A stretch of 60,422 nucleotides of DNA from a virus (lineage: Duplodnaviria > Caudoviricetes). A model generated the notes under the pieces. It did not search any database. It worked only from the letters and a program-made list of their open reading frames with translations, and had not been told where the DNA came from. The stretch covers positions 1 to 60,422 of IMG/VR virus record IMGVR_UViG_3300032047_000013. The stretch is one strand, 5' to 3'. This document shows positions 12,188 to 60,422 of the stretch, piece after piece. Every line of letters starts with the position of its first letter. The stretch's first letter is position 1. The position numbers were made by a program, and so were the translations under genes.

Positions 12188-12306
12188 GACTCGCACTCTT
12201 CAGGGCTGTCAAGGTTGCAGCTAATTTCTCCAGACTTAACCTTATCCTCTTGCTTTTTGAGCTTATCCTGATCCAAAAAGCTGATGTCGTCAAACTCGTC
12301 CTCCAT
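12175..12306 (-). CDS. 43-aa acidic mini-protein ending in C-x7-CxxC (not in ORF track)
   Basis: MEDEFDDISFLDQDKLKKQEDKVKSGEISCNLDSPEECESCSG*; exactly fills the gap between the holin and the CTD protein. Confidence 0.7.
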   Translation of the reverse strand: MEDEFDDISFLDQDKLKKQEDKVKSGEISCNLDSPEECESCSG

Positions 12307-16800: not shown

Positions 16801-19800
16801 GCAAGTTCGGCGTCAAGAAACTGAGCCCTAGACAAAGACAAGGAGGGTATAGACTTAAGAGCTCCTCTTTTTCTTGGTGTGGTTTTTCTTGCGTCTATGT
16901 TCAACAACAGCGCCTTCATGAAGTCATTTCTTTTTGAGAAAGAGAGCTCGTTTATACTCTGCACCTCTTTATTTATAACGTTGGAAAGTGTTTCAAATAC
17001 AGCCAGAAGGTTGTTGTTGTCTGGTATGGAGATCTTTAATCCCTTCTCCTTAATCTTCATAACGCCGTTCTTGTAAAGCTTTTCTGCGGTTGCTTGCAGC
17101 TTGTCCTTTCCTCGGCCCTCAATTACTGCTGGGTGACTCTTAAGTCTAAGAAGCACGTTTCTCAACAAATCCGTCCTTTGCTTTGACCCCCCACGTTTAG
17201 AAAAGTCCAATACGTCTTCGACGGCTTCTCTTATTTGCTTTGAAGCCACTGGATCGCTCTCAGCCACCTCCATGATCTGCCTCCAGGTTTGCTCAAAGAC
17301 TTCAGGGTTTCCGTGAACATACTCTTTACCCTGAGTAAAATAGGTGATTACAATTTTTCTGTTTCTGTTCGGAGATGCGTTGTCAGCTCTAATCGCCTTC
17401 TGTATCTTCTTCTTTGTTTCAAGTGCCTGATTTCGGTTTCTGTGAGAAAACAAAACATCGGGCTTAGTTTCTGCAACTCCAGACTTATTAGCGATCCAGC
17501 TTGAGTCGTAAGCCATCGCCACATAAATGGGATTCACCAAGCCCTTGATAAGGCCCTTAAGAGTTCCCATTACAGAGTTTGGTCTCCCCTCCATTGCCTT
17601 AAGCTGCTTCTTTGTTGGCTTCTGCGAAACCACCTCAGAAGGTGCCTTGGCAAATCTTCCCGTGCTTCTTGCGCTCTCTTGCTCTTCAGGATTTTGTTCT
17701 GCGAGCAAAGAGTGCTCTCTTTCGCTTAGGTTGAATAGCTCTGGGTACTTGGCCGTGCTGATCGTATTACCGCGCCCAAGCATATCCTGCATCTCCTCCT
17801 CTGTAATCTCTAGCTCATTGAACAGGTTAATGTTTTCGAGCTGTATCTCTGCTGCCTCAAGCTTAGCCTCTGCAAGCTGCCTCTCAAGACCCAAGGACTT
17901 TCTCACGGGGGCATCCCTTAGGATTTTATCTATAGCTGGAGCAAAGTCAAAGAAGTTGGTGTTTGAGTAATTTGGATTACTCCTCCAAGCATCTCCAGCG
18001 TCTTTTTGTACCTCTGAGGCCTTTTTTCTGATTGCGTCAACTTGGTTGCCCAACTCTAACTTCTTCTCCGTTTGGCGCTCCTGATAAGTGGAGTACCTTC
18101 TCTTAGCCTTTCCAGTTGGACGCTCTTTTGGTTGAGGAAGGATGTACTCCTGTCCATCTATATCAACACGCATCTCAGTAACTCTGTCTGGATATACGTA
18201 TGATCCGTCAGCATTGGTTCCAGCCATACCCCTGTACCAGTTGGCAAAGTGATCGTAGCTGTTGAATGGTCCTGCTGTCTTTGGCCTTCCGTATTCCCCT
18301 TGAGCCACACCGCCAGTTCTTATTACATATTCGTGGCCCTTGTATCTAACTCTAGCTCCTTCCTTTGGCCACTGAGCCTTAGCCATCCTTCCGCTGGCCT
18401 GAGTCTGATCTCCCTGGATATCTACCTGCTTGCCTCTAGTAGCTCTTTCAAGCTTCTTGCCGAGGGCGATAACGTCGTTCTCGCTCTTAATTGTTCCGCC
18501 GAGACCCATGGTGTCAAGAACCTTTTGAGCGGCCTTGATGAACCAATTCTTTTGAGACTTGTACTTTGATGGGTCGTTAGCGTAGTCAATCATGAGGCCC
18601 ATAATGGCCTCTTCCTCAAGCATAGCGGTGTCTTTGCCCTGCTCTCTGGCAGCCTTAGCCATCTGATCGACAGACATTTCAGACGCATCTATATCTCCGT
18701 AATTCTGAAGCCTTTCTCTAAGTATGGCCTCTGCAGCTTTATTCTTCTTCGCCAAAGAGATAAGGCTGTCAAACGTAGCGGCTCTCGTCTTAGAGTCTTG
18801 ACCAATAGCATTAACAAAGGCCTTGTGTGCAAACTCCTCCCTTACGGTGTTTCTTGTTGCCTTTGGACCAAGGTGTATTGTTCCATCTGGAGCCATGTAT
18901 CCATCTATCGGGCCTGCCTCCGCTCTGGTTTGCTCGTCTACGTTCCCAATGGACTCTTGAGTCTTGTGAAACACAACCTTACCCTCCTGCATCGTGTCGC
19001 TCTTGAGGCTTCCCTGAAGAGTCCTTACTTCCTCCGCGATAGTTGTATCTACTGTTTCTGACTCAAGAAGCTTTCCTCCAACATCATCGTTAAGGTCAAA
19101 CTCCTCGAAGTCATCGACAAGCTGCTCCTCTTGTGTTGGTTCTGCCTGCACAGGTTGCTGCTGAGTGTCATCCTCTATGGTAACCTCAGTTGGCTTACCC
19201 TGCTCGTCTGGGATTGCTACAGTCTCTGGCTCCGCCTTTACGCCCAGCAAGTCCCTAAGGTCTCCCTCAAGCTCTGCTTGTTTTGCAGCCGCCTCATTAA
19301 GGTCACCAAACTCTGCAGCCTCTGTAGCTGCTGTTGCTTCTGCGTCTGAGGTTTGCTCTTGAGCTTGACCGACTTCTCCGATAAGTCTTAGTGCCTCCTT
19401 CTTTCTAGCCTTCAAGGTTGCAACCTTTTGAGTTGCTGCTTCTTGAGCTTGAGGCGACTCCGCGTCAATACCTGCCCTCTCTGCAGCCTCATCTACTTCT
19501 GCTTGAGCTTGTTCTATTTCCGAATCAATGCTCTCAAGGGCCTGTGACACTTCGTCACTAAGCGTCTGCTCTTGTGGCTGAGCCTCTTCCGATACATCCT
19601 CCTGAGTCGTCTCTGCTTCAGGTGCAGAAACATCAGCTTCCTCTGACACAGACTCACCTGTTCTTGTTTGATCTTTCTTCGACTCAATGGATTCAATAAG
19701 GGCTCCACCAAAAGCTTCGTCCTCGTTCACCTCAATCTTCATCTTTTGAAGCTGATCGTAGGTGGATGTTGAGACCACATCCTCAAGAGCCTCTTTGGTC

Positions 19801-21203
19801 GTTTCTTGACCATTAAGCCTGTATGTAGGCTTCTTTACGAACGCAGAGGTTATGGCTGTGTTGGCAAGCCCACCTGGGGTTCCAGCAGTAGCCTCCAATA
19901 TGACCTCAACTCCAGACAACTCATCTCCAGCGGCTAGAGTACCAGCGACTTCACCAAGGCCTCCAACAACGCCCTCACCTCCAAGCTCTATAGCTAGTGA
20001 CTTAGCCGTTGTCTTTGTTGACTCAGCTATGACTTTCTCTGCAGTCTTAGCAACAGTTCTTGATCCTTTCGCAAGCTGAGATACTGCAACCCCTCCTACG
20101 AACTCAAAGGCTCCGATAGTAGCTCCTCTAGCTATTGAGGAGTTTCTAATTCTCTTCATTGCATCTTCATTGGACAAGATTTCTCTTAGTCTGTCTGGAG
20201 TAAGGTTTTCTGCACCTCCCGCCTCTTCAGCGAGAGCCTGAGAGAAGTACTGCATTGTCTCCATGGTTGCTCCAGCAGCGCCCATTCCTACTCGAAGAGC
20301 ATAGGGAAGCGCTGCTATGGCTGCGGCGCCCGATCCAACGGGCGTTGCTATAAGACCAGCTGTAGCCGCGCCTGCCTCTACAGTAGCCACGCCAGCTCCG
20401 AAAGCCTTTAATGACTGCTTGTTCAGCATGCTAGTTAGCGATGAAGCCATAACCTCCACCCCAACCCCTGGGTTCTTCGCCATGGCTACAAGAGCCCCCA
20501 GATATTCGTTATCGTACTTTTCTACCTCAGCATTAAAAGACTTCATAGCCTCAGAAGCCCCATGTTTCTTTTGATGATCCTCAGAAGCCTGTAGTGCTTG
20601 GATATACTCTATAGCGTCTTTGTCAGACACCTCTTCCATGTCTCTAAACACATCACCGACTTGACCATTGACCCTAATTTGAGTCATGCCGTCGGCAACC
20701 CCACGAATAGGGTGAGACAAGGCCTCTCCCATCCAACCCATCTCTTCCACGGCCTCAGACAGGGCCATAACCTTGTCTGCAGTTTTTGAGTCTTCTGCTC
20801 TAAAGGCCTCTCCAAAAGCACTCCAACCCTTCTTTACCTCGTCCCAGTTTTGATATATGTCCGCAACGGTCCTTGCCGCCATTCCAATGGGGCTAGAACT
20901 CATCTGCCCAACAGCGCTTACAGCCTCTACAGCGCTAGGTAGTCTACTCTCTGAAGAGTCCGACTTTCCAGAGGGAGCCTGAGAAACTGAAGGAGATACC
21001 CCAGAATCGTCTTTTTTTTTTACAAGAGAGTACTTCGCATCGAACTCCTCACGGCTCTTTGTGTAGAGTCCGTCACGAGTTACAACGCCAAAGACCTTAT
21101 CTCTGTAGGCTGGGTCTGCGTACTGTTCTTGAAAATCCTCAAACGACTTTGTATAGTAGCCCTCTCTTGAGAGAGAGTCGTAAAGCTTCTGTAGTTCTTC
21201 CAT
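13836..21203 (-). CDS. giant polyvalent internal-virion/ejection protein with C-terminal LPD38-like domain
   Basis: 2455 aa; Gly/Ala-rich hydrophobic region; acidic linker; zincin-like REEFAH; C-terminal NFVRD..FENSVR..TVNFNKQG..YLFFNAGVQG..YIKVPMPYG pattern. Confidence 0.75.
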   Translation of the reverse strand: MEELQKLYDSLSREGYYTKSFEDFQEQYADPAYRDKVFGVVTRDGLYTKSREEFDAKYSLVKKKDDSGVSPSVSQAPSGKSDSSESRLPSAVEAVSAVGQMSSSPIGMAARTVADIYQNWDEVKKGWSAFGEAFRAEDSKTADKVMALSEAVEEMGWMGEALSHPIRGVADGMTQIRVNGQVGDVFRDMEEVSDKDAIEYIQALQASEDHQKKHGASEAMKSFNAEVEKYDNEYLGALVAMAKNPGVGVEVMASSLTSMLNKQSLKAFGAGVATVEAGAATAGLIATPVGSGAAAIAALPYALRVGMGAAGATMETMQYFSQALAEEAGGAENLTPDRLREILSNEDAMKRIRNSSIARGATIGAFEFVGGVAVSQLAKGSRTVAKTAEKVIAESTKTTAKSLAIELGGEGVVGGLGEVAGTLAAGDELSGVEVILEATAGTPGGLANTAITSAFVKKPTYRLNGQETTKEALEDVVSTSTYDQLQKMKIEVNEDEAFGGALIESIESKKDQTRTGESVSEEADVSAPEAETTQEDVSEEAQPQEQTLSDEVSQALESIDSEIEQAQAEVDEAAERAGIDAESPQAQEAATQKVATLKARKKEALRLIGEVGQAQEQTSDAEATAATEAAEFGDLNEAAAKQAELEGDLRDLLGVKAEPETVAIPDEQGKPTEVTIEDDTQQQPVQAEPTQEEQLVDDFEEFDLNDDVGGKLLESETVDTTIAEEVRTLQGSLKSDTMQEGKVVFHKTQESIGNVDEQTRAEAGPIDGYMAPDGTIHLGPKATRNTVREEFAHKAFVNAIGQDSKTRAATFDSLISLAKKNKAAEAILRERLQNYGDIDASEMSVDQMAKAAREQGKDTAMLEEEAIMGLMIDYANDPSKYKSQKNWFIKAAQKVLDTMGLGGTIKSENDVIALGKKLERATRGKQVDIQGDQTQASGRMAKAQWPKEGARVRYKGHEYVIRTGGVAQGEYGRPKTAGPFNSYDHFANWYRGMAGTNADGSYVYPDRVTEMRVDIDGQEYILPQPKERPTGKAKRRYSTYQERQTEKKLELGNQVDAIRKKASEVQKDAGDAWRSNPNYSNTNFFDFAPAIDKILRDAPVRKSLGLERQLAEAKLEAAEIQLENINLFNELEITEEEMQDMLGRGNTISTAKYPELFNLSEREHSLLAEQNPEEQESARSTGRFAKAPSEVVSQKPTKKQLKAMEGRPNSVMGTLKGLIKGLVNPIYVAMAYDSSWIANKSGVAETKPDVLFSHRNRNQALETKKKIQKAIRADNASPNRNRKIVITYFTQGKEYVHGNPEVFEQTWRQIMEVAESDPVASKQIREAVEDVLDFSKRGGSKQRTDLLRNVLLRLKSHPAVIEGRGKDKLQATAEKLYKNGVMKIKEKGLKISIPDNNNLLAVFETLSNVINKEVQSINELSFSKRNDFMKALLLNIDARKTTPRKRGALKSIPSLSLSRAQFLDAELAAAKSGHAVAAKLIPVVSADDVLIRNNPESAFPFEVVIDGFEQDLTYLQEWPNLSEMDPKFQPEESAQAVRSSIRGRLDSGMAGRFSKANPMTTVEHDGKSFDVRSKSRVQEVTDNFLRKMANKYREIELIQADVEKSKGRPVDESQDFKMAEELMYGKAATALEKLDERVSDITSIMKDNGITEQDITDYLYALHAPERNALLLEREGVDNGSGISDLEAQEIIDEIAKSGKLKAFEEAGQKIQDIAQDTRNTMRKLGLETDARIDAFEDMFKNYVPLAGIAIDESGENVGTYPSGSTGFHVSGSRIKKAEGRKTPAINLFAQTVHMNAATHVRGQKNEVMKSLYNLIKENSNKDVWSVFDPEKKGEKRSIGNLDVVGVRVDGKQMAMQFADPSHAQSLRDMGVSKTNTFLKVMRGLSGWLRRSYTTLRPEFAINNFVRDIGSAVFNASAETEIEGGVLNGQKVVKDMMKMVPSSLSAFLKDSVGKDSDPLIKKYFEEFKEDGGRTGWSHVKSIQEIQEGIVSDTSDPKSGVKGVAQKLFGKISDTAEFVEGVNEAFENSVRMAAYVAARKNGVSRSKSAQFAKNVTVNFNKQGEYGQVLNAVYLFFNAGVQGTARFARSMGTLKPKQKADGTTRKGRERITTPQKLAGGMVLFNSMLTMLNIALSDRDEDDELFYNKIPDYVKERAMVIMVDGENYIKVPMPYGYNVFANMGQSMTEVAMGHRKPWSGVTFMTNSILTSFSPVSFGQSKDLITSISKGAVPTPFKPIVDVLANETYFGGKVHADQSPFGAPKPESELAFRSPESVQSFFRWMNEATGGSSEVSGSVDFNPDKMWYLFEYAIGGVGRDITRGVEATRKVAAKTVDPSIDVEFNDIAMMRALYGEPSKYYDFELYADRRDGIVQLSREYKKLSRAQRNSKGDRYDGLKKLDRQLKKSERELKKLRAIKREARREKDYTLRTSKLQKLFEEERKVIMEFNRVYNNLKGK

Positions 21204-21204
21204 T

Positions 21205-23097
21205 TTAATCTAGTTCGCCGCTATTTCCTGTGGATGTTGATTCTGCTTCTTGCAAGAAGTCCTTATTCATAAGAGCCGCCAATGTAGCGTCTGGGCCGTA
21301 AACCATCTTCAAGTTGTCCTCGATTTGCTTAAGTATTGATGCTGAAGCCCTATCCCCCTCCTTCAACTCAACATCTGGGATGCGGTTTCCTTTATCTGAA
21401 CCTGTTTCGTGATACAGATTTGTTAGTACAATCTTACCTTCGCTAGGGTAGAACAGGATGTCAACGGGCTCTACATTGACCCTACCGCCGTCACCGTCGG
21501 GAACCGTAACCCTTACGTTTGAGTTCTTAAGGGCCGTGAGAGTATACTGGTGACCCGCTGGGGCCTCGTTTGAAATGGCATGATCCTTAATCCAGGACCT
21601 CATTCTTTCTTGCTCTTCTGCGCCCTTTTCTAGATAGAACTTTTCTTCTTCCTTTGTATTGGAGTCTGTGAGGGTCACGACTTCGTCGCCATCCCACGTT
21701 GTGGCACCAGCGCTTATGTGCTTGAGCTCCTCTCCTTCTAGCTGTTCGTTTAGCCTTCTAGCCACCTTCTTGTCGTTGATGGTGTCTGTAACATTTCCGT
21801 TTTCATCTAGCTCAATTCCAAAGTCAACGCTATCAAGTGTCGAGCTAACCCTCTCTTCTATGGGTACGGGCTCTATTCTTGCAGCTGTTCCTAGCTGCCC
21901 ACGGCGCTCAGTTCTTGCTCTTTCGTCTTTTGTTAGCTTACGGGGATCTTTTGGCTTCTCGTTCTCTTTTGCGAACCTAGACGTTTCTCTCCACCTTCTT
22001 CTCGCGTCCTCCATAGCAAGCTCATTCATGCCTTGGTATTCTCCGTTCTCTATGAACTGCTGCCTTTGTTCCTTGCTGAGGTCTGGGAATATGTCATCCA
22101 CGACAACCCTCCTAAACTTCTGAGTTGTAATGTTGTTGTCCCAATACTGATCTGAAATATACTGCTGCTGTTGTTGCTCGGAAAGGTCTCCGACTTTCTT
22201 TGTTACGTATCCATCTTCATTTTCAGGGTCAGAGGGATCGTAAAATGTTATTGGGCTTGCAGGATCAGCGTTAATCAAACTATCCTGAATCCTTTGCGCT
22301 TGATTCTGATACTCGTCTCCATCAGCGACGTCAAAAAGGGTCTGGCTTGCGATGGTCGTCATATCAGGCTGGAAGGTTCTGGCTCCATCCATAACGTGAG
22401 GCATCTGGAAGATATCCATCTCCTCGCCCTCTTGATAGATGGGCATGCCGTTCTCGTCACGTTCTCCAGTATCAATCTTCATGGTGGAGACAAGTTCTCC
22501 GTTCTCATTGATCCTCATCTTGGTTGTGAAGAACCCTCCTTCGTTAACGAAGTCGAGTCTTTCTTGAGCCCAATCAAATTCATCTATAGGATTGCCGTCC
22601 TCATCCATAAGCGCAAATCCGTTCTCTTCGTAGAACTCCCTTGAGTTGCCATTCGTTGCCCGCTGCATTGAGTCCTGCATCGTAAAGCCAGTGCCTGTAG
22701 CGTTATTGTCTCCGTAAGACTGAATGTAATAGTTCTCAGCCGTGTCTATATATGCGTTAAGCTTTGCAAGGTCCTGAGAAAAACCCTCAGGGTTGTCGTA
22801 ATAGCCTCCGCTTTTCCACTTCTGCGCAAGGTGATCTCTGTAGAACGAGATAGCCTCTCTATGCCCATCGTAAACCTTTCCGAGCTTGGCCCCATAGAGC
22901 TGTTCGTTTTGCTTCTGACGCTCGTCCCTAGCAGCCTTTATCCTTCCAGCATACAGCTCGTCCTTAGTGACGGCCTCTTTTACTCCGTCCTGAAGAGTGG
23001 GCTTTCTGAACGTTTGAGCTGGAGCTGGAACCCCAACACCAGCCTGGCTTACCTGCTGCCCGCCTCTTTGAGGCATATATACTATACCCTGTGGCAT
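21205..23097 (-). CDS. putative internal virion/ejection protein
   Basis: 630 aa, helical; lies between the tail genes and the giant protein. Confidence 0.55.
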   Translation of the reverse strand: MPQGIVYMPQRGGQQVSQAGVGVPAPAQTFRKPTLQDGVKEAVTKDELYAGRIKAARDERQKQNEQLYGAKLGKVYDGHREAISFYRDHLAQKWKSGGYYDNPEGFSQDLAKLNAYIDTAENYYIQSYGDNNATGTGFTMQDSMQRATNGNSREFYEENGFALMDEDGNPIDEFDWAQERLDFVNEGGFFTTKMRINENGELVSTMKIDTGERDENGMPIYQEGEEMDIFQMPHVMDGARTFQPDMTTIASQTLFDVADGDEYQNQAQRIQDSLINADPASPITFYDPSDPENEDGYVTKKVGDLSEQQQQQYISDQYWDNNITTQKFRRVVVDDIFPDLSKEQRQQFIENGEYQGMNELAMEDARRRWRETSRFAKENEKPKDPRKLTKDERARTERRGQLGTAARIEPVPIEERVSSTLDSVDFGIELDENGNVTDTINDKKVARRLNEQLEGEELKHISAGATTWDGDEVVTLTDSNTKEEEKFYLEKGAEEQERMRSWIKDHAISNEAPAGHQYTLTALKNSNVRVTVPDGDGGRVNVEPVDILFYPSEGKIVLTNLYHETGSDKGNRIPDVELKEGDRASASILKQIEDNLKMVYGPDATLAALMNKDFLQEAESTSTGNSGELD

Positions 23098-24033: not shown

Positions 24034-27000
24034 TCACATCGAAGAGTCAAGGTTAGACGGCATTGAGTCAACGCCTATGCTAAGCAAAGCCCCATTAGTC
24101 TTTGGGATTGCAGCATCTACAATCAGGTACTTATCTCTAAGCTGATCCCCATAGTAGTTAGGGTCTGAAACAATAATAACATCTCTACCGTTTATATCAT
24201 CAAAAAAGTCTGTCGCAATAAACCCCTCGCTGTACTGTATGGACGCCTCGATTATGTTTTCTTTTATAGACTTAACAAAAACGACCTCTACATTAGGTAG
24301 AGAGGACATGCTTGTGATTTGATTCTCAATCCCTACAGAGATGTCTACGGACTCTCCGACATTAAAGGTGTAATCTGAGCTATTGGACAATAAGAACGTC
24401 AACGGAACAAGCTCTCCTGGGCTGCTCTGTTGAGTCAAGGTCATTGATGACAAAATGCCTACGGACTTAATGTTTGAGCTGCCACCAAGCTCACTCCTTG
24501 GGAGGTCGCTGTAAAAGGTGCCTTCTTTTTCAGTAAAACTAGTAAGGCTTGCCTTCTCATTGTCTGTCTCAAACTTCAAAGACCATTGTTCGTCACCTTC
24601 AATAAATGAAGATTTATAGGCGTGAACCGTAGCACCATTGTCATTAAATACAGACCTAAAGTGAGATACAAAGTCGTATCCATGAAATCTGTTTGGAAGG
24701 TCATTCTTGTTGTGCTCATAAAAAAATGAATCTCCATCAATTTGGTTTTTTGAAGACAAAAACGACTCGTTTACAAATGAATAATCAAGCGAATCAAATG
24801 AATAAAAAGTCTTCCAGTAGGGGTCTCCTGCCGCATTAAAGGCAACCGTGTTGTGATTAGTAGAATCTAAATTCCAGTAAGTGTCAGTAAACTGAGATAG
24901 ATTTGATCCAAGATTTGTGCTCATAGAAGAACCTCTAGAAATAATAAGCTCCCTGTTTACTGGATTGTACCCTGTAACAACCTTAAATGATACAGGATCT
25001 TCAGGTGTTTTTAAAAAGTCCCTAAAGAAGCCCCTCATCTTGTTGTTAGAAATCTCCTCTATTGATTTGCCGCTTACTCTTACAACAACCCTGTTGTCGG
25101 TGTCTGCAAAATATACATCGTTGTCTACTATTGTGACCGACTCTGGATGTCCAGACGTTCCAAAGTCATTTGCATAGCCTTGATGATTTTGAAGGACATT
25201 AGAGCTAAGTGCTAAATTTTCAACACCGTCAGCGGTTGACGTGATTGACTTATTTACAAACACGTCCGAAACCTTAGAGTCTTGAATTGCAACAAGTCTG
25301 TTTCCAACCTCAGCCATGTAGTCTATCTTTCCGTATCTCTTAGGGAGGTCATAAAAGTTGGCTGAAGAGGGGAATGAAAAAATGCTAGGCCTAAATGTTT
25401 CAGAAGAGTTCTTCTCTCCAAAAATTATTGAAGCCTCGTTTCTTGTTTCTCCAGAGTCCCTGTTGACGTAATGAATCCTTCCGTAGGATTTAGATTTAGA
25501 TCTGTATAGATCTGTTACAGAGTTTGACTCCATGAAAAATCCCCTAAACCTAGATTTAGACTTATCCTCTTCTGTTGTATTGTCACCTTCTATCAGGTCT
25601 ATAAATTCTGATGTGGCAGCATTGTACTCTCTTGCATTCTGAGGCACCGCCCTAAAGAACACATCCCCCTTGGTTACCCTGATTTTATCTGGTAGATGGC
25701 TGAGGGCGCTCTTTATTCCACGAGCACTTGTTTCGAAGTATGGCAAAAGATCCTCATCTAGGTCTGATTTCTCTGTAACTATTTCAAATACACACCTGTT
25801 TCCCCATTTGTCAACCTGATTTAAAACAGAGGCAGCGTCAAACCCATGAGCGTTTATGTTGTTTCTTAGGACCAGGAATGAGCCTGTTCTTTTGATTTTT
25901 GCATCAAAATCGTCTTCCCCCCCAACGAGCGGGTTATCTTCCTCCGATGATATCTCTTTCGTGCCCATTACGTCAAAGACAAAAGTCCTTGGGTGATAAG
26001 CTACATTTTCGTCGTCAGAAAAACTACTGATTATCCTAACCTTGTCTCCTTCCGAGAAACGATAAAGAGTTGGCTCCAGGGTGTCCTGATCTCTTGCTCC
26101 AAAAGCCTTAGTGTAGGATATTTTGCTACCCTGCAAGTAATTCATGGAAACGTATATGGAGTCGTCCTGATTCCCATTAGATCCCTTTTCAACAAAAGCA
26201 CCTCCAGAAACCATTTGAGTAAACCTTCTTGTACTAGAGGCTCCACCATAAACGATTCTCCATGATTCAGCCCATGTTGGCATAGGGTGAAAAAGCTCTA
26301 TTTCAACGTCAACGCTTCCCCTTCCATTGGCTTGTCCTTCTTGAGAGTAGTTCTGAATAGAAGATCTTTCAGAATCGGAATAACCTGGAACAAATGCGCT
26401 GTCAAGGGGGAAGACAGAACTCGCTCTGCCTTTATTGTCGTAGTACACTATCCCGAAGTTGTGAACGTCGTTTGTTTTAAACGAGTAGTCAATATCTCCT
26501 GAATCCGTTATGATAGAAACAATGTTGCCCACATCTTCAAACCCCCCTGCGCTTAAGTCAGAATTCTCAAATTCATCGTCAGAGGGGAGCATAAAGGTCT
26601 TGTCTATGTTTAGATACGGAAGATTGTCTACAACACCTATCATAGTCGTGTTCCAAACACTACCCCTTCTATTTGATACAGGCAAAGAATCTCCAGTTGC
26701 CTCCCCTCCAAACTCGTCGCCTGGGTTGTAGCTCCTTACTACCTCTGAGCTATATGAAGCCTGACTTCTTCCTCCAGGACCAGCGTCCCCATCTATAACA
26801 GAGAACGAATAAGTTCCATCATCATCGAGCGCATTCTCTCTTATGTCAAGAGTCTCGAATTTTGTTAACCATGCAAATCCGTAACCTCTAAGCTCTAGAG
26901 ACCCAGTGTTTTCTTGTTCTTCGGCTGTAACCTCGTATGGGTATGGAAGCCAGTGAACTGGGTGTCTGGGTCGAAACGTATAACTTCCAGAAAAGTTGTG

Positions 27001-29625
27001 TTTATCGTTGAGTCTTCCCTCAAGAGTCCCGTGCTGACCATTGCTGTTTTTAATGACCACATCCGCTGAAAACTCAAAATCATCCTTCCACGCTCCATAC
27101 AGTGCGTCACTTCCAGAATAAACATACCACTTTCCTATGGCTGTGGGGCCATCACCACCCTGAACCCTTCCGTTGTTTAGTATTCCAAGCTGCTCCCTTG
27201 GAGTTCCGCTGTTATCCTCAAGAGTGTTAGTTACTGACGTGTCGGTGTACGTTTGATATGAAACGTAGGTGCCGTCACTTTTTTTAACTCCAAGACCATT
27301 GCTAGCGGGGTGAGCTATGTTTGAGTTTGGCACATTGTTCCCGCTTACTGTTTTTGCAACAGGCCACCTGTAAGTAAAACTTCCGTCTTCAACCCTTCCT
27401 ACGCAAAAAGGCATAAGAGGAGTAGAGTAATAACTCCAGTTACTCAGTGTTTCCCATTCGTCGTTTGGATCCCAATCCACAGTGTCTGGATCAAGGTTCC
27501 CCTCCTCGTCTGCAAACCCATTGAAGTAAACCTCACCCTTTCTCCATTCAAAGGAATCTCCTTGGGTCCAGCTACCCTGAGATGGAAAAGAAATCATGTC
27601 TTTTCCGTTGCCGCTCATTTGAGCGGAAATGGTCTGAAGTCCAAGCCCCTCCTTTGGAGAAGGAATACATGTAAGTATGTTTTCAAACAAAGCACTTCTG
27701 TAGTATCCGTCTGGCTTAGATCCACTAAACAGCCCGCTATCAAAGTCTGAGCCGTTAGGAAAATCAAAGCTTTTGAGCTTAAACTTATAAAACAAGCTAT
27801 CCGAGTATGGGTTAGTTCCTCCGCTGCCAAAAAGAGGATCGTCTGAAGAGCTTTGAGTGCCCTGAACTTTGGATATTTTGAGGGAGTATTTGGCTCTATT
27901 TACAATGTAGTATGCAATAGGGTGGTTCCCGAACCCCCCAAAAGTTGTGGTCCATCCTCCAAGTTCTCCGTTGGGGGATGCACCGCCTTCAGATCCTCCA
28001 ATTCCACAGACCAAGTCCGCTAGATCAGAATCAGCGTCAAAGCTGTCCTTTGAGTCTAACCCAAGGTCTACAATAAGGTCCACAACGGCCTCTCCTGTTT
28101 CTAATGCTGGAGAGTCAAATACCTCTACATCATCTTCGCTTAGGTTGACAATGGACCCATCATACGACCCAGTAGATACTATTTGGTCGAATAGCGCCAT
28201 AAATGAGTCTCTTGGCAGCTCTACCGTTGTTCTAAAGGCAATCCTAAAGGATATTAGTCTCGATTGAACAATAACTGGGTTGGCTGGGGAGCTACCTATT
28301 TTTGCTTGCCACGCTGAATCACCTTCGGCTCTATTTATGTGACCAACCTGGGCTATGTTGTTTAGCTTTGTCTTTGAGTTAAAGTGCCCAAAGGCATTAT
28401 CTTTATCTCCTATGTATGGTACTCCAGCGCCGTTGCCAGAAAGATCATTGCTCTGAGGGGCAAAAGTGCTTAAGTGTCCAACGGCATTAGGAATGGTGCC
28501 TCCAAATTCCGAGAAAAAATTAGATGCCTGGGCGCTATTTATATTGCCCTGACTGTCCATGAATGGCCACGGGGTTCCAGCAGAGCCATTAAAATACCCG
28601 AAACCAGTAGGGTAGTAGGATTGAGATGAAAAAAAGTGAAGGTTTCGTTTTGGGCGAACATTAACCCTTATGTCATACAATCCAGCCTCCCCCGTCTCTT
28701 CTGGAAGGTTTGAGAAGTTTAAATGAAAGGTTGAGTGAACTTGCTTCCCTATGTTTGTGGTCCCTGTCTCAGGAGTCGCTCCACGAGCATATTCCCCAAG
28801 AGTCTGATCCATTCCCAACTCTATCTCGCCACCGACAAGATTTTCTCTTTTCTCGTTGAAAATGACAGTTGACCTTGATACAGGCTGAACCTGATCAAAG
28901 TTTTCCGTATAGTCTCCATACATCATTCTTTCTCCAACAACAGACTGAGTACCAGCCTTTTGAGGAACACTATCAAAGTTTTTATTTAGGGTTGCAGTTG
29001 ACAACACCCCATAAGTTTTGTCGTTTCTGAACCTATACGTAAGGGTTTCCAGATCCCACTCCTCTATAGACTGATTAACTTTTAGAGATACCTCATCTAT
29101 AATTTTTAAAACTCCACCATTGCCCTCCCTGAAAAGAATCCTTACTCTTATGGCTTCATTACCAATATCAGGTATGTTTATATCTGCGGCGTTCTCAAGA
29201 TCAATAACAGAGACTGAGTTCACCCCTATGCCAAACAAGGCTGTAGGGTACTCCACGTCCGACAAGGGTGATATTGCACTAACAAAACCGTCATTATAAA
29301 CAGCTTGATAGCAAAATTGAAATCCATTAGAACCCTTGAACCTGCTAGGGACTGGGAGGCCAGACGAAATGTCTGTTTCGGTGTCCCATGTTACAGATGG
29401 AGAAATCATAGGGACCCTTGTGCAGGCATCCATAAAGTCTTTTAAATCTTGAGATGAGGATTCATATCCAGTAGCATTCCCTGTAAACTCAGTATCTCCC
29501 TCTATAGACCTTCTTATGTTTATTCTCCTGGGCTCGTTATGACCATCGGTAAAAGCCAAAACGATGTCAACCTCTTCATCAGAGCCAACAAAAGGCGTGA
29601 TGTCTTTATTCTTCTGATAAGCCAT
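24034..29625 (-). CDS. tail stabilisation/muzzle protein, main part (crAss-like)
   Basis: FTDGHNEPRRINI, FQFCY..Y.DG..SAISP, VPQKA..Q..VGERMMYGDY, FGIVYYDNKGR, YGKI, FGTSGHPES, W.TFYSF, EKEG.FY motifs. Confidence 0.8.
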   Translation of the reverse strand: MAYQKNKDITPFVGSDEEVDIVLAFTDGHNEPRRINIRRSIEGDTEFTGNATGYESSSQDLKDFMDACTRVPMISPSVTWDTETDISSGLPVPSRFKGSNGFQFCYQAVYNDGFVSAISPLSDVEYPTALFGIGVNSVSVIDLENAADINIPDIGNEAIRVRILFREGNGGVLKIIDEVSLKVNQSIEEWDLETLTYRFRNDKTYGVLSTATLNKNFDSVPQKAGTQSVVGERMMYGDYTENFDQVQPVSRSTVIFNEKRENLVGGEIELGMDQTLGEYARGATPETGTTNIGKQVHSTFHLNFSNLPEETGEAGLYDIRVNVRPKRNLHFFSSQSYYPTGFGYFNGSAGTPWPFMDSQGNINSAQASNFFSEFGGTIPNAVGHLSTFAPQSNDLSGNGAGVPYIGDKDNAFGHFNSKTKLNNIAQVGHINRAEGDSAWQAKIGSSPANPVIVQSRLISFRIAFRTTVELPRDSFMALFDQIVSTGSYDGSIVNLSEDDVEVFDSPALETGEAVVDLIVDLGLDSKDSFDADSDLADLVCGIGGSEGGASPNGELGGWTTTFGGFGNHPIAYYIVNRAKYSLKISKVQGTQSSSDDPLFGSGGTNPYSDSLFYKFKLKSFDFPNGSDFDSGLFSGSKPDGYYRSALFENILTCIPSPKEGLGLQTISAQMSGNGKDMISFPSQGSWTQGDSFEWRKGEVYFNGFADEEGNLDPDTVDWDPNDEWETLSNWSYYSTPLMPFCVGRVEDGSFTYRWPVAKTVSGNNVPNSNIAHPASNGLGVKKSDGTYVSYQTYTDTSVTNTLEDNSGTPREQLGILNNGRVQGGDGPTAIGKWYVYSGSDALYGAWKDDFEFSADVVIKNSNGQHGTLEGRLNDKHNFSGSYTFRPRHPVHWLPYPYEVTAEEQENTGSLELRGYGFAWLTKFETLDIRENALDDDGTYSFSVIDGDAGPGGRSQASYSSEVVRSYNPGDEFGGEATGDSLPVSNRRGSVWNTTMIGVVDNLPYLNIDKTFMLPSDDEFENSDLSAGGFEDVGNIVSIITDSGDIDYSFKTNDVHNFGIVYYDNKGRASSVFPLDSAFVPGYSDSERSSIQNYSQEGQANGRGSVDVEIELFHPMPTWAESWRIVYGGASSTRRFTQMVSGGAFVEKGSNGNQDDSIYVSMNYLQGSKISYTKAFGARDQDTLEPTLYRFSEGDKVRIISSFSDDENVAYHPRTFVFDVMGTKEISSEEDNPLVGGEDDFDAKIKRTGSFLVLRNNINAHGFDAASVLNQVDKWGNRCVFEIVTEKSDLDEDLLPYFETSARGIKSALSHLPDKIRVTKGDVFFRAVPQNAREYNAATSEFIDLIEGDNTTEEDKSKSRFRGFFMESNSVTDLYRSKSKSYGRIHYVNRDSGETRNEASIIFGEKNSSETFRPSIFSFPSSANFYDLPKRYGKIDYMAEVGNRLVAIQDSKVSDVFVNKSITSTADGVENLALSSNVLQNHQGYANDFGTSGHPESVTIVDNDVYFADTDNRVVVRVSGKSIEEISNNKMRGFFRDFLKTPEDPVSFKVVTGYNPVNRELIISRGSSMSTNLGSNLSQFTDTYWNLDSTNHNTVAFNAAGDPYWKTFYSFDSLDYSFVNESFLSSKNQIDGDSFFYEHNKNDLPNRFHGYDFVSHFRSVFNDNGATVHAYKSSFIEGDEQWSLKFETDNEKASLTSFTEKEGTFYSDLPRSELGGSSNIKSVGILSSMTLTQQSSPGELVPLTFLLSNSSDYTFNVGESVDISVGIENQITSMSSLPNVEVVFVKSIKENIIEASIQYSEGFIATDFFDDINGRDVIIVSDPNYYGDQLRDKYLIVDAAIPKTNGALLSIGVDSMPSNLDSSM

Positions 29626-56993: not shown

Positions 56994-58060
56994 GAGTAGC
57001 GATCTCTCTTCTTATCAAGATTTGCTTTTCTCTTCTCCATTTTATCCTGCTGCTTTCCGTATCGCTTTACAATTCTTGCAGCTCTCTTCTTACCGATAGC
57101 TTTTGTCGTCTCCCTGTCATAGGAGGTAGCGCCTCTTTTCTTATTTTTTCTATCAGAGAAACCGATCTTCTTCTTTGTGATCGTGCCTTCACCAGCATCC
57201 ACCTCTTTTGTGCGCATGCGCTTGTAAGTGTTGCTATCGCCCTTGCCGCTCATCTTAGTCTTCATAGCAACTTTTCTGGTATCCGTAGACGGCCTCAAGG
57301 TTCGCTCATTGTTTGAGTAACCTGGGAGCATGTCTCTTCTATCCAGGGTCTCAATAGTCTTGGACCTACGCTTTGTGCTCTTGTTAGACATCTTGTAATT
57401 TTCAGCCCGACTCTTTCTGCCGCCATCTCTGAAAGACTCAGCTTTTTCTGCCTTCTTTCGCTTGATAGCGTCAGTGACCTTCTTCTCAAGTCGGTTCTTA
57501 ACGGCGCCTGCCTTGTTGTTGGCTTTTCTAATAGCAGCCTTAACCTTCTTCAAGGGACCTTTGCGGCCACCGTCTTCGTATTTACCTCCGTTTTTCATTC
57601 TACCTTTTGTTGCAAATTTATCCATGGCGGAAGACCTTCTGTCTTTCCTCTCCAGGGCACTCATTGATTTCTTATATATATCCTGTGAAGATTCTTTCTC
57701 CTTGGACTCTCCAGAAGATTGTTGTTCTTGTTCTTTGGAGCGAGCCTCCATGTTCTTCTTCATCTCCCCAACCTTATCCTTGAAGTTGGTTCTGCGCTCA
57801 TCGCGCTTAAGAAGCCTGTCCGTCTTGCTCTGTTGCTTAAGCTTATTCTTAGAAGCCTTTAGGTTCTCCTTGGAACCAACATTGTTGAAGCCTTTGGTCA
57901 TCAACTGCTTGGGGCCTCCTGCAGCCTTTGCAGCTTTAGCTCCCTTAGCAGCAGATCCTGCAGCCTTCATAGACTTAGCAGCCTTAAGTGCCTTAGCAGC
58001 TTTAAGTGCTTTTGCGGCTTTAAGTGCTTTTGCGGCTCCGAGTACTAGTGGTAATGGCAT
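56990..58060 (-). CDS. very basic histone-H1-like protein
   Basis: (AAKALK)3 N-terminal repeats; Lys/Arg-rich throughout. Confidence 0.7.
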   Translation of the reverse strand: MPLPLVLGAAKALKAAKALKAAKALKAAKSMKAAGSAAKGAKAAKAAGGPKQLMTKGFNNVGSKENLKASKNKLKQQSKTDRLLKRDERRTNFKDKVGEMKKNMEARSKEQEQQSSGESKEKESSQDIYKKSMSALERKDRRSSAMDKFATKGRMKNGGKYEDGGRKGPLKKVKAAIRKANNKAGAVKNRLEKKVTDAIKRKKAEKAESFRDGGRKSRAENYKMSNKSTKRRSKTIETLDRRDMLPGYSNNERTLRPSTDTRKVAMKTKMSGKGDSNTYKRMRTKEVDAGEGTITKKKIGFSDRKNKKRGATSYDRETTKAIGKKRAARIVKRYGKQQDKMEKRKANLDKKRDRYS

Positions 58061-58064
58061 GGGG

Positions 58065-58072
58065 CAAATATA
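58065..58072 (-). promoter_or_regulatory. -7 element TATATTTG (probably leaderless)
   Basis: 4 nt before ATG 58060. Confidence 0.7.
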
Positions 58073-58084
58073 ACACTAATCAAA

Positions 58085-58549
58085 TTAGTACTTCGTCTTC
58101 CTTAGCTTCATAAAACCACCCTTGGCATAAAGGCCTGCAGCACTAGCAGCCGTCTTGATCAAACCCGACTTTATAAACCCAGTACCCCTCTGATCGAGTA
58201 TACCATCAACCAAAGATCTAGTGTCAAGGTCGTAGTTGTCTCTCAACCCCTGCACAGTATCCTTTATCTCCCCAAGATTACCCATAGCATTTTTGATGCC
58301 ACCAGAAACATCTCCTTTGTCTTCAGGAGCCATCCTCTGAACCAAGTCAAGAAGGCCTTTCATCTCATCATCGGACATACCCTTGAGCTTGTCAAAATTA
58401 AGCCCAGGGAGATCTGTCAAACCCTTCAACTCCCGACCCGACATCTTCTGTGCCCGCTCAAGGAACTCAGATCTAGCGTCTGCACCCTTCTTGGCAGGGT
58501 CGCCTGGGCTGTTCAATGCCCCTCCAGCTTCGTACTTACGTAGTTTCAT
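58085..58549 (-). CDS. hypothetical protein bounded by YxxGG motifs
   Basis: MKLRKYEAGG...LYAKGGFMKLRKTKY; start placed at ATG 58549. Confidence 0.65.
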   Translation of the reverse strand: MKLRKYEAGGALNSPGDPAKKGADARSEFLERAQKMSGRELKGLTDLPGLNFDKLKGMSDDEMKGLLDLVQRMAPEDKGDVSGGIKNAMGNLGEIKDTVQGLRDNYDLDTRSLVDGILDQRGTGFIKSGLIKTAASAAGLYAKGGFMKLRKTKY

Positions 58550-59282
58550 GCTTATATACAACTATTCTCGCGCCATAAAAGAAAAGGACTCCTCTGTGTA
58601 CACACAAAAATCATTTTTGGATGCTTAATCACGTCTGAATCGCTTAGATGCCGTAAAGGTATAAAGGAAAATCTTAAAAGTCAATAGTGAACGAACGGTT
58701 TAAGCAAGGACTCATAATACACTACTAATCAAAGGGTTAGGTAGCAGCCACATAGGTTTTGTTTGTAAGTCATGAATACCGATTAGAGCGAATTTTCGCC
58801 TCTGAAGGCAATGATCCGAAAAAATGCGGTAGAAATGTATAGGGTGGGGATTATATATATACACAGGCGAGGACCACTGAATCCGAAACGGATTCAAAAT
58901 AGCCTCAAACCCTCCCTTTAGGGAGGTTTTGGCATACTTTTCAGCTTTCTGCCAACTGACTGTAAGTCAGTTCTTTGCACCTTCTTACATGAAGCTTCGC
59001 TTTCAGCGGGAGAATCGAGGCAGCAGCTCCGAAACACCGAACAATCCCAACCCTATTCTACGAATAGACTGATTACCACCCCTTTAGGGGGTGATACAGA
59101 ACCGATTTTGGGACTGGCTCAACACTTCGTGTTGGGCATAGGAAACCGAAACTCAAAACCGATTGGCAGAGCGGTGTGTAACGCCGTAGTGTACGTAGTC
59201 AACTTGTTGACTTCCTGTGACTACCGAGGTTTGGCTTCAACCATTACTCTACCTTGTAGAGGAATGAAGTTGGGAAGATATA

Positions 59283-59338
59283 GAGTTGTAGTATAAGAGA
59301 GAAGAAGTCTTATGACTTCTCTCTTATACTACTAACTC
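59283..59338. other. long imperfect hairpin
   Basis: GAGTTGTAGTATAAGAGAGAAGAAGTC-TTAT-GACTTCTCTCTTATACTACTAACTC. Confidence 0.8.
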
Positions 59339-59395
59339 CTAAAGGGTTTGAGAAGTCGTCCTTTAGGAAGTCAAACTTCATTTAATTCATTTCCA

Positions 59396-59917
59396 ATGAA
59401 TAACTTCAATTTCTCCGACTGCCGTAAGGCAGTAAACCAAGCTTCTTTCCGTCCAACAAAGAGCCGAAAGGCTCTTGCTTCAAAGCTTCTTGCAGAAGCT
59501 TTAGAGTTCGTCGCCAACCTCGAAGAGGTTGCTGACAAGCCTTCGAAGAAGGCTAAGAAGACTCGACGTAAGTCGAGGAAGAAAGCAACTCCAACCCAGA
59601 GGGTTGCTGACAGTCAAGAAAAAGCCTTTCATGGAAAGGCTGACAGTCCAGTCAAGCCTTCGAAGAAGGCTAAGACAGCTTCCGTTAAGGAAGCTAAAGC
59701 ATCTCTGAAAGAGATGGATGAGAAGAAAGCCGTCAAGAAGACAGCGAAGCTGAAGGCCAAGCAAGTGGCTTCAGGGGTCAACGAAGTTGACAGAGTAGCT
59801 TCCTTGGAAGCTAAAATCGAGGCTCTCACCGCAGTGCTCGCTGTGCACATGGAGTCTACGACTCTGGCTTCTCCTTCTAACGAAGTTAGCCTTGACGAAG
59901 TTCCTTTCACCCTTTAA
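59396..59917 (+). CDS. Lys/Ala-rich early protein
   Basis: ATG at 59396 after an AT-rich leader; KPSKKAK occurs twice; ends DEVPFTL. Confidence 0.7.
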   Translation: MNNFNFSDCRKAVNQASFRPTKSRKALASKLLAEALEFVANLEEVADKPSKKAKKTRRKSRKKATPTQRVADSQEKAFHGKADSPVKPSKKAKTASVKEAKASLKEMDEKKAVKKTAKLKAKQVASGVNEVDRVASLEAKIEALTAVLAVHMESTTLASPSNEVSLDEVPFTL

Positions 59918-59927
59918 TCCATCGAAG

Positions 59928-60008
59928 ATGATTAACTTAATCCTTTCCTTTGCACTGGCATGCGCTGTCTTGTACTTTGAGTACAAGCTGTTGCTCCGCT
60001 ACCTCTGA
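59928..60008 (+). CDS. 26-aa hydrophobic peptide (not in ORF track)
   Basis: MINLILSFALACAVLYFEYKLLLRYL*. Confidence 0.45.
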   Translation: MINLILSFALACAVLYFEYKLLLRYL

Positions 60009-60015
60009 CCCTTTA

Positions 60016-60075
60016 GAGAGTTACGTGTATATACTCTCTGAACAGAGTGAAGAGAGTATATACACTTAACCTCTC
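60016..60075. other. long hairpin with a 15-bp perfect core
   Basis: GTGTATATACTCTCT (60025-60039) / AGAGAGTATATACAC (60051-60065), extended by GAGAGTTA/TAACCTCTC. Confidence 0.8.
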
Positions 60076-60105
60076 AATAACAAACTTCAATTAAACCCTT
60101 TCCTT

Positions 60106-60246
60106 ATGGACAAGAACCTACGCCGTCAGCTGATTGCTGACCTCCTGACATCCTCTATGGACTTCGAACTTGTGACCTGCACTGATGTGTGGGACGAGCT
60201 GACCTGCGATGAGCAGATGACCTTGGAAGACTTGATTGACTGCTGA
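60106..60246 (+). CDS. 46-aa acidic early protein (not in ORF track)
   Basis: MDKNLRRQLIADLLTSSMDFELVTCTDVWDELTCDEQMTLEDLIDC*, preceded by the CAAACTTCAATT leader. Confidence 0.65.
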   Translation: MDKNLRRQLIADLLTSSMDFELVTCTDVWDELTCDEQMTLEDLIDC

Positions 60247-60251
60247 AAGCA

Positions 60252-60309
60252 GTACAGGTACTCTGATGAGCCTTGTATAGGCGAAACACCCCCTTGGGGT
60301 GTCAGTATC
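60252..60309 (+). ncRNA. type I hammerhead ribozyme
   Basis: Stem I GGTACT/AGTATC; core CTGATGA (60263-69); stem II GCCT/AGGC; GAAA (60283-86); stem III CACCCC/GGGGTG; GTC cleavage triplet (60301-03). Confidence 0.9.
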
Positions 60310-60328
60310 AAACTTCAATTCATCTACG

Positions 60329-60422
60329 ATGACAAAACTTCAAGAACTATATTTCACCCTGCAAGGGTGGGACGGGTTCAGCGTCAAACACGACCTGAAC
60401 GAGTACGGAGGCGGAGGCTACG
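60329..60422 (+). CDS. 5' part of an early gene (truncated by the window)
   Basis: MTKLQELYFTLQGWDGFSVKHDLNEYGGGGY..., directly after the ribozyme and leader motif. Confidence 0.6.
   Translation, partial: MTKLQELYFTLQGWDGFSVKHDLNEYGGGGY

Follow-up and report, generated by a model that had tools for sequence, protein, structure and literature searches.

A dense array of perfect mini-hairpins, probably maintained as DNA, at the head of the early genes of a phage genome

Why should the leader and the first early genes of a phage be crowded with short, perfect inverted repeats, and is it the DNA or the mRNA that folds? The question is raised by positions 58878-60422 of the IMG/VR contig IMGVR_UViG_3300032047_000013, a podophage-like genome of 60,422 nucleotides (nt) that was analysed whole and is referred to here as the window. 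An earlier note, made from the sequence alone, had noted about 30 mini-hairpins in this stretch and had proposed that selection acts on them as DNA. We confirm that the hairpin array is real and far beyond chance, and we show that compensatory changes preserve its perfect palindromes on both strands without recourse to wobble pairs, and that these palindromes constrain the synonymous sites of a real gene. The best explanation overall, to which we assign a probability of roughly 45%, is a conserved DNA-level array of mini-hairpins, that is, potential mini-cruciforms, with a structural role.

A hairpin array far beyond chance

All 20 of the perfect hairpins listed in the earlier note lie where it had placed them, with the stems and loops it had given (nine GAA loops, one GTA, five with GNA on the minus strand, three GNNA and two CTTG), and the imperfect 21st at 59172, which includes one G-T pair, can be read in the sequence as well. 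Perfect stems with loops of 3-5 nt were counted in 58878-60422 (1545 nt) and compared with 500 dinucleotide-preserving shuffles. There are 33 hairpins with stems of at least 5 base pairs (bp; shuffles 4.9 ± 2.3, maximum 12), 28 with at least 6 bp (1.3 ± 1.1, maximum 5) and 15 with at least 7 bp (0.36, maximum 3). The remaining 58,500 nt contain 235, 63 and 9 at the same three thresholds, equivalent to 6.2, 1.7 and 0.24 per 1545 nt. When the genome is divided into intervals of 1500 nt, 29 hairpins fall in 58501-60000 and 1-13 in every other full interval, which bears out the earlier impression that nothing comparable exists in the other 58 kilobases (kb). Hairpin density is therefore far above that of dinucleotide shuffles, of synonymous-codon shuffles (given below) and of the rest of the genome. 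Hairpins with arms of at least 5 bp take up about 41% of 58878-59930. Repeated mobile elements, CRISPR-like repeats and operator sites for a dimeric protein were each ruled out because every stem is different, and an assembly or amplification artefact was ruled out because 47 independent contigs have the array and runs from 13 studies contain the stretch.

The array region is laid out as follows, with open reading frames abbreviated as ORFs:

58819-58857, plus strand: control element, made up of an A-tract (58819-58824), a GAG-type block and the core GTGGGGATTATATA (58844-58857)
58878-59395: leader part of the array, about 14 perfect hairpins with stems of at least 5 bp
58878 (8 bp, AAA), 58954 (8 bp, GTA), 59053, 59120, 59197, 59247 and 59385: examples of leader hairpins
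59288-59332: long near-perfect hairpin with arms of about 20 bp and a TTAT centre, followed by CAAACTTCA at 59372 and the start of ORF1
59396-59917, plus strand: ORF1, 173 amino acids (aa), Lys/Ala-rich, with 13 perfect hairpins inside it
59918-60422: distal, thinner part of the array, with hairpins at 59930, 59969, 60125, 60239, 60286, 60320 and 60355
60025-60065: second long near-perfect hairpin
60081 and 60309: CAAACTTCA motifs beyond ORF1
60106-60246, and 60299 onward (open at the contig end): small conserved ORFs

ORF1 behaves as a gene in a protein alignment, in which its homologues keep the frame, have indels in multiples of three and share conserved N- and C-terminal blocks. Superimposed on this coding sequence are hairpins with arms of 6-9 bp; synonymous-codon shuffles of ORF1 yield 2.0 ± 1.2 hairpins (maximum 7 in 2000 shuffles), against the 13 observed. 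Conservation of third codon positions is higher within stems (0.67) than elsewhere (0.59, p=0.02). In the genes that it covers, the array takes precedence over the choice of synonymous codons and even of amino acids. Start codons are also drawn into it: that of ORF1 sits in the 3' arm of hairpin 59385-59401 (ATTCATT-TCC-AATGAAT), and that of the ORF at 60329 sits in the 3' arm of hairpin 60320-60332 (TCATC-TAC-GATGA). In one relative, L084, a similar TTCATC-TAC-GATGAA is found at ORF1. The ORF1 product had no Pfam, PHROG, PDB-sequence or ESM Atlas match that would give it a name, and neither blastn of 58500-60422 nor tblastn of ORF1 against 50,697 phage records returned a match.

No conserved ORF was noticed in the leader (58878-59395), for which no systematic search was made. 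It holds three of the eight genome copies of CCGAAAC within 270 nt (58883, 59029 and 59146, all on the plus strand), and these repeats could be iteron-like. As iterons proper, CCGAAAC and AACCGAT were rejected, since they are clustered locally only, with no genome-wide enrichment. The two long hairpins, whose arms measure 15-20 bp, look like promoter/terminator-cassette units together with CAAACTTCA, different in kind from the mini-hairpins. Five exact copies of CAAACTTCA are present in the window, and three of them sit 14-19 nt ahead of the start codons of small ORFs. Public sequencing runs were compared as assembled contigs (Logan), and these contigs part ways exactly at 60014-60076 and 58831-58865, which indicates shared modules that occur in different contexts in mosaic genomes. 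Only one of seven terminator-like sites is on the plus strand, and the mini-hairpins do not show the combination of a GC-rich stem and a following T-run.

Relatives were represented by 47 IMG/VR loci fetched by tblastn with the ORF1 alignment (loci L085-L131). Hairpins with stems of at least 6 bp were counted in bins of 500 nt: at every one of the 47 loci, the two bins around the start of the gene contain 7-25, and the other bins 0-3 each. A search of IMG/VR with the terminase gave 80 loci, and dense blocks are seen in four of those that reach far enough upstream. The more distant complete or cultured relatives MW202828, Flavobacterium phage elemoE and Cellulophaga phages phi38:1 and phi18:3 nowhere exceed 5 hairpins per kb and show no block, so that the scan of these genomes yielded no experimental system with an array. 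Runs from 13 studies contain the stretch or part of it, and the 14 runs with at least half of the sampled words are marine or viral metagenomes. Contigs from RNA runs (three short ones at 59739-60115, X17, and one at 58485-58754, X15, at a depth of 2-3) are too sparse to speak to transcription.

The control element and the array boundary

The first hairpin begins about 20-25 nt downstream of the control element. Its core, GTGGGGATTATATA, has one exact copy in the window, and the next-best matches have three mismatches. With up to six mismatches to a 23-nt query, the element is found in 39 of the 47 relatives as well as in the window, with its upstream context conserved, and six of the eight remaining relatives have the core with up to three mismatches. 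The element is near-invariant across relatives while its flanks diverge. An exact 14-mer scan of IMG/VR returned mostly chance matches, and a sigma-70 promoter scan gave nothing useful, the promoter type of Bacteroidota lying outside that scan.

In order to place the boundary of the array, 33 non-redundant loci were aligned on the 3' end of the element, and perfect inverted repeats with arms of at least 6 bp and spacers of at most 12 nt were counted. Upstream bins have 1.5-6.7 hairpins per kb throughout, or about 3 per kb as a round figure. Downstream, density is 17 per kb in the first 100 nt and 16-31 per kb up to +1000, and it is near background by +1700 to +2500. The array is thus found on the downstream side of the element only. 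In loci where ORF1 lies farther from the element, the dense block tracks the element and not the gene.

Some related contigs have the full clade-type context of the element and are poor in hairpins: L190 and L199 have 0 per kb, L193 has 1 per kb, L154 has 1 in 779 nt and L207 has 1 in 462 nt. The element is accordingly a unit of its own, most simply an early promoter or another unique start site, and the array is an addition present in one subclade. In the array-less L190, L193, L154 and L207 the element is accompanied by about 120 nt of conserved leader motifs, namely CCGAAAC(C/G)GAT, a ACCCCACCC-like motif and a ACTTTTCAGCTTTT-CTGG-like motif. In L190 and L193, the 1.2-1.5 kb past the element contain no ATG-started ORF of at least 70 aa.

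Maintenance at the DNA or the RNA level

The array is likely to be DNA-level and strand-symmetric in nature. This agrees with the earlier proposal that selection (or at least maintenance) acts on DNA and not on mRNA, which is upheld by five observations set out in this section: almost wholly Watson-Crick stems with no excess of G·T over A·C, GNA loops on either strand, symmetric loop usage, loop flips and no gain in stability of the sense RNA.

The hairpins belong to a narrow size class. In the aligned loci, arms of 6 bp (354) and 7 bp (368) are the most frequent, followed by 8 bp (150) and at least 9 bp (76), and spacers are mostly 3 nt (442), with 2 nt (147) and 4 nt (93) next. When 132 hairpins were placed in the orientation given by the GNA loop, no position of stem or flank exceeded 0.17 bit, and the only informative positions were the closing pair and the middle base of the loop (A in 88). 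Loops were tabulated for 273 unique triloop hairpins, with expectations corrected for trinucleotide content. The closing pair is 5'-pyrimidine/3'-purine in 245 of the 273 (C..G 155, T..A 90, A..T 16, G..C 12). GAA is enriched 8.3-fold, TTC 5.8-fold, GTA 4.6-fold and TAC 3.4-fold; GNA loops number 81 (expected 18.6) and TNC loops 52 (expected 16.6), and all other loops are depleted (140, expected 237.8). Among the 12 commonest centre pentamers listed are CGAAG (37), CTTCG (15), CTACG (11) and CGTAG (5), and a C(GTAA)G centre occurs 13 times. GNA is present on one strand or the other in about half of the triloop hairpins (133 of 273). Loops whose stability is particular to DNA, as GNA triloops, are thus enriched on either strand and not confined to the transcribed one. 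Enrichment of a loop correlates with that of its reverse complement (Spearman 0.51, p=0.003).

Covariation was examined in a 20-sequence ORF1 alignment with the hairpins of the window as the structure. Paired cells amount to 79.4%, compared with 26-46% when partners are slid, and 36 of 101 pairs have changed on both sides, compared with 9-13 for slid partners and 19.7 ± 2.4 for shuffles, none of 500 of which reaches 36. The stems differ between relatives and covary, a pattern that the earlier note had proposed to look for, and TAC and GAA loops are among those retained. Examples are GAGTC-TAC-GACTC versus GAGAC-TAC-GTCTC; CTAAC, CCAAC or CTATC-GAA-GTTAG, GTTGG or GATAG; and AGTCAA..TTGACT versus AGCCAA..TTGGCT, AGATAA..TTATCT and GCTCAA..TTGAGC. 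Counted across homologous hairpins in related sequences, so that the events are not independent, there are 557 compensated pairs, and 143 homologous hairpin pairs stay perfect with at least one compensated pair. In 17 closer genome pairs, 126 pairs are compensated, against 52 G·T and 77 A·C. Inner single mismatches at homologous positions are G·T in 4 cases, A·C in 14 and other in 16, and hairpins with one mismatch have G·T in 10, A·C in 11 and other in 59 (background 12, 10 and 52).

The loops themselves are exchanged between strands. In 26 homologous hairpins all three loop bases differ, and in eight of these the two loops are exact reverse complements of each other, where about one would be expected by chance (again a count from related sequences with events that are not independent). 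Examples are GAA/TTC and TGC/GCA, found at alignment columns 275-291 (window 59655-59671) and at 59482-59502, which suggests that loop inversion is a unit event. A flip leaves a cruciform unchanged and alters the loop of an RNA, so the flips favour DNA over RNA as the level concerned.

Folding energies point the same way. The minimum free energy as single-stranded DNA (ssDNA) is -204.3 kcal/mol for the plus strand and -204.5 kcal/mol for the minus strand. Under RNA parameters, 28 of 29 loci have a sense strand that is less stable than its complement, by an offset equal to that of upstream control DNA. What is expected of cruciforms, namely perfect dyad symmetry, a short centre and equal strands, is all present. 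A structured RNA should covary with tolerance of G·U and on the transcribed strand only; covariation is seen, with G·T no more frequent than A·C and with symmetric loops. An Rfam scan of 58000-60422 found no family at E<0.05, and all matches were far below the gathering score.

The alternative that fares best is that the early leader and the first mRNAs have been selected to fold as a chain of local hairpins, which we consider unlikely. The roles that such a chain might have are blocking of Rho loading, of RNase attack, of RNA polymerase backtracking or of R-loops, with the perfection and symmetry of the stems as a side effect of palindrome mutation. It would account for an array that begins directly past a promoter-like element, lies on its downstream side only and covers non-coding leader and genes alike, and it would fit the preference for GAA over TTC on the sense strand (58 versus 31) and the presence of GNRA-type GTAA and GAAA loops. 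It does not account for the avoidance of wobble pairs, G·T failing to exceed A·C in three independent counts, nor for UNC loops, which are enriched 3.1-fold and have no RNA rationale, nor for loops that are swapped for their reverse complements. Spacers of 2-3 nt dominate, whereas RNA typically has at least 4 nt. The absence of any relative gain in sense-strand stability with RNA parameters, the start codons buried within stems (59385-59401 and 60320-60332) and the lack of an Rfam family also stand against it.

Possible roles and known systems

The array sits at the divergent junction between the structural and the early gene blocks of the genome, whose relevant features are:

about 8.7-58.56 kb, minus strand: structural and packaging genes (portal, large terminase, giant virion proteins)
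from about 58.9 kb, resuming at the window start, plus strand: early and replication genes
502-1266, plus strand: RecE-like exonuclease
2119-3927, plus strand: primase-helicase
3959-4417, plus strand: endonuclease I-like resolvase

No DNA polymerase was recognised among the phage proteins. For the terminase, the closest cultured relatives infect Flavobacterium and Cellulophaga (35-40% identity), and type IX secretion sorting domains, which are host-like export signals and point to a Bacteroidota host, were found in two phage proteins. Taken together these indicate that the host is probably a marine member of the Bacteroidota. The C-terminal sorting domains (Por_Secre_tail, CHU_C), together with an M43 metallopeptidase domain next to them, were seen in the set of genes at 9755-12196 (minus strand), 7137-8072 (plus) and 5380-7140 (plus). 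Among the virion proteins, an LPD38 'large polyvalent protein' domain is present in a giant one of 2455 aa (13836-21203, minus strand), the last 880 aa of which match giant-protein PHROGs to which no function is assigned. Polyvalent proteins of the LPD38 type are typical of elements that protect entering DNA. A second giant protein of 1863 aa (24034-29625, minus strand) matches a virion structural PHROG, and a 630-aa protein of the virion module (21205-23097, minus strand) matches C-5 cytosine DNA methylase weakly, below threshold (E 0.002).

The contig ends at 60422, within the array and 505 nt after the ORF1 stop codon, and its two ends have no terminal overlap. Well over half of the relatives' contigs likewise stop 0-4 kb downstream of ORF1. 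None of 29 contig ends compared reaches DNA resembling the first 3 kb of the window, and no DNA resembling its first 2.2 kb turned up in the 47 loci, which extend up to 4 kb beyond the gene. Our tentative reading is that these stops reflect a hypervariable early region that breaks assemblies and not a physical genome end, and a few kb of variable early genes are probably missing from the contig. In L098 a small ORF3 homologue occurs twice, inverted, at 1707-1821 (minus strand) and 5747-5860 (plus strand), with hairpin-dense DNA at about 2.5-5 kb between the copies, which suggests an inverted duplication of the early region. The earlier note had also suggested that the array is probably the first-entering or first-transcribed end of the genome. 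Being first transcribed is plausible, since a unique, conserved, promoter-like element at a divergent junction lies no more than about 25 nt ahead of the array.

In the mechanism that we propose, the array would be a series of potential mini-cruciforms with 6-8 bp arms, a centre of 2-4 nt, a pyrimidine...purine closing pair and, in about half of them, GNA on one strand, placed directly past the single early control element and spanning the leader and first early genes over about 1-2.5 kb. As the genome enters, its first-transcribed stretch would become negatively supercoiled or unwound, possibly through transcription, gyrase or a helicase. Both strands would then snap into stable hairpins of the type that extrudes at physiological superhelicity in phage N4. 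The array could take up negative torsion in the wake of the first RNA polymerases, on a short length of entering DNA that is topologically constrained, and unwound strands that are kept folded would be poor substrates for single-strand-binding protein (SSB) and nucleases. Intrastrand templated correction and loop inversion probably help to keep the arms perfect. A structural or topological role is preferred over sequence-specific signalling because the hairpins offer no readable sequence, because their high density decays with distance and because the array is dispensable for the element. A role specifically as torsion buffer or fold shield is a tentative suggestion that we would sooner doubt than accept. 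Still less probable is the most explicit version, a mechanical device within coding DNA in which 30-60 extrudable mini-cruciforms buffer torsion or fold the strands while host RNA polymerase pulls the genome in.

Several points weigh against this structural interpretation. The element occurs in related contigs without the array, so that the array is dispensable for its function. The other half of the loops (AAA, CTT, TTT, TAT, AGA) lack GNA and are not of the classic extrudable type, and the surplus of GNA on the sense strand, 81 versus 52, amounts to some strand bias. Density peaks at +500 to +700 and not at +0, which a torsion model based purely on distance from a promoter does not predict, and a free leading DNA end would dissipate torsion. 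Finally, templated mutation could lie behind the perfect stems in place of selection at the DNA level, which would leave room for an RNA benefit. The 5' arms are pyrimidine-rich (purine fraction 0.40), and coding bias could be the cause of this as well as of the GNA surplus on the sense strand.

A zone of replication origin or priming, in which the element marks duplex opening and SSB-free hairpins offer the phage primase-helicase places to load or to prime, in the manner of the G4 origin or RSF1010 ssiA, is quite unlikely. Mini-hairpins are documented at the primase sites of G4, St-1 and alpha3 and at RSF1010 ssiA and bind SSB poorly (PMC13037366), the hairpins here are on both strands, and the phage encodes a primase-helicase (2119-3927) with no recognised DNA polymerase. 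The cumulative GC-skew minimum coincides with the array locus, where it is confounded with gene orientation, and the leader holds the CCGAAAC cluster described above. Dozens of sites over 1-2.5 kb would, however, go far beyond any known origin, the flanks offer a primase no shared bases (at most 0.17 bit), the array is one-sided relative to the element, and element-bearing relatives do without it.

An equally low chance is given to a by-product with no function, arising where a stretch is often single-stranded (a resected end, a displaced strand or heavy transcription are suggested sources) and templated quasi-palindrome mutation together with arm-to-arm conversion makes perfect palindromes. 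Compensated perfect stems with few intermediates, loops that invert as units (8 of 26), a density that decays from a fixed point and the RecE-like exonuclease and endonuclease I-like resolvase encoded by the phage would all be expected of such a process, as would element-bearing relatives that live without the array. It sits poorly with several hairpins (helices 7 and 10) that do not vary in 19-20 of 20 sequences whose identity is otherwise 64%, synonymous sites included, and with the greater conservation of third codon positions in stems. Arms of 6-8 bp and a closing pair that is pyrimidine..purine in 90% look like selection for a stability class, and a neutral process would carry a heavy load with about 41% of the coding and leader region tied up.

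A slightly slimmer chance still attaches to protection or decoy at a first-entering end, where strands unwound by AddAB/RecBCD or by end-sensing defences would fold and slow degradation or titrate the sensor, or where an ejected protein or the Lys-rich product of ORF1 would bind to the hairpins. GNA mini-hairpins are nuclease-resistant (PMC13037366). Both strands are equipped with them, density falls with distance from a fixed point, and the giant polyvalent virion protein with its LPD38 domain is present. Against this, every contig continues past the element into the structural genes, only one end (L096) lies near the element, and there are element-bearing relatives without the array.

The earlier note had also suggested hairpin promoters in the sense of phage N4, and here its proposal fails: promoters for an injected virion RNA polymerase are very improbable, despite the same geometry of 5-8 bp stem and 3-nt loop and an enrichment of the C(GNA)G determinant, because the hairpins run to dozens (about 30 or more in each genome) and lie on both strands, because no bases are conserved beyond the closing pair and loop, because most would drive antisense RNA given GNA on the sense strand in 81 cases and on the template in 52, and because no such polymerase was found. 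The 2455-aa and 1863-aa proteins contain no Pfam or PHROG RNA polymerase family, no PDB sequence match and no DFDxD motif; no fold search was made.

N4 is all the same a close physical precedent to set beside the array. As described in PMC4496689, its early promoters are DNA hairpins of 5-7 bp with a 3-nt loop that extrude at a superhelical density of -0.035 in the presence of Mg2+ and that depend on gyrase for extrusion in vivo. Extrusion and stability require a C:G closing pair with a 5'G and 3'A in the loop, and the injected linear genome acts as topologically constrained. The array shares the short stem, the 3-nt loop and the location in the presumed first-expressed region of a podophage and, in part of its hairpins, the C:G closure with a 5'G...3'A loop. 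The geometry of 5-7 bp and 3 nt is that of its hairpins, and the loop determinant is enriched without being universal (GNA in 133 of 273, closing C..G in 155 and T..A in 90). It differs in that N4 has three such promoters, on the template strand, with conserved bases from -17 to +1 and a dedicated polymerase, whereas the array has dozens of hairpins per genome, on both strands, overlapping coding sequence and with no shared bases, as seen in the 132 GNA-oriented hairpins.

The hairpins also resemble the Hirao-type mini-hairpin DNAs d(GCGNAGC) and d(GCGNNAGC), whose GNA or GNNA loops and C·G closure are found in the array. In the 2026 review PMC13037366, mini-hairpins are nuclease-resistant, bind SSB poorly and occur naturally where synthesis of nucleic acid begins, at the G4, St-1 and alpha3 primase sites, at RSF1010 ssiA (CCGAAGG) and at N4 promoters. 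The G4, St-1, alpha3 and RSF1010 cases are single sites in ssDNA replicons or plasmid origins, whereas the array is kilobase-scale, belongs to a double-stranded DNA phage and has GNA in about half of its loops. The PeSLs (promoter-early stem-loops) of T4-type phages are stem-loops with a short conserved motif around small, variable early ORFs, and they mark recombination joints (PMC2839356 and PMC4122927). The long hairpins at 59288-59332 and 60025-60065, with CAAACTTCA and the divergent Logan contigs, resemble them. PeSLs are repeated intergenic cassettes of one sequence family, whereas the mini-hairpins all differ in sequence, lie within genes and covary. With structured viral RNAs and intrinsic terminators the array has dense, covarying local stem-loops in common, and it differs from them in using no G·U pairs or U-tracts and in loops that are symmetric under reverse complementation.

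No published description of such an array was found in the literature searched, supplements not being covered. If the reading as a mechanical device is true, this would be the first phage gene region with codons shaped throughout by DNA and not by RNA secondary structure, a structure maintained by arm-to-arm correction and loop flipping. The locus provides a natural system in which to ask whether cruciforms or hairpins of ssDNA arise in vivo, and are of consequence, in the first minutes of infection, how a DNA-structure constraint coexists with coding and whether templated mutation keeps palindromes perfect. A simple scan for inverted-repeat density that steps at a unique element could expose similar devices in other phages. 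The known DNA hairpins with GNA loops act singly, as sequence-specific signals at N4 promoters and primase sites; here they form a kilobase-scale, clade-conserved array that evolves by compensatory change and loop inversion.

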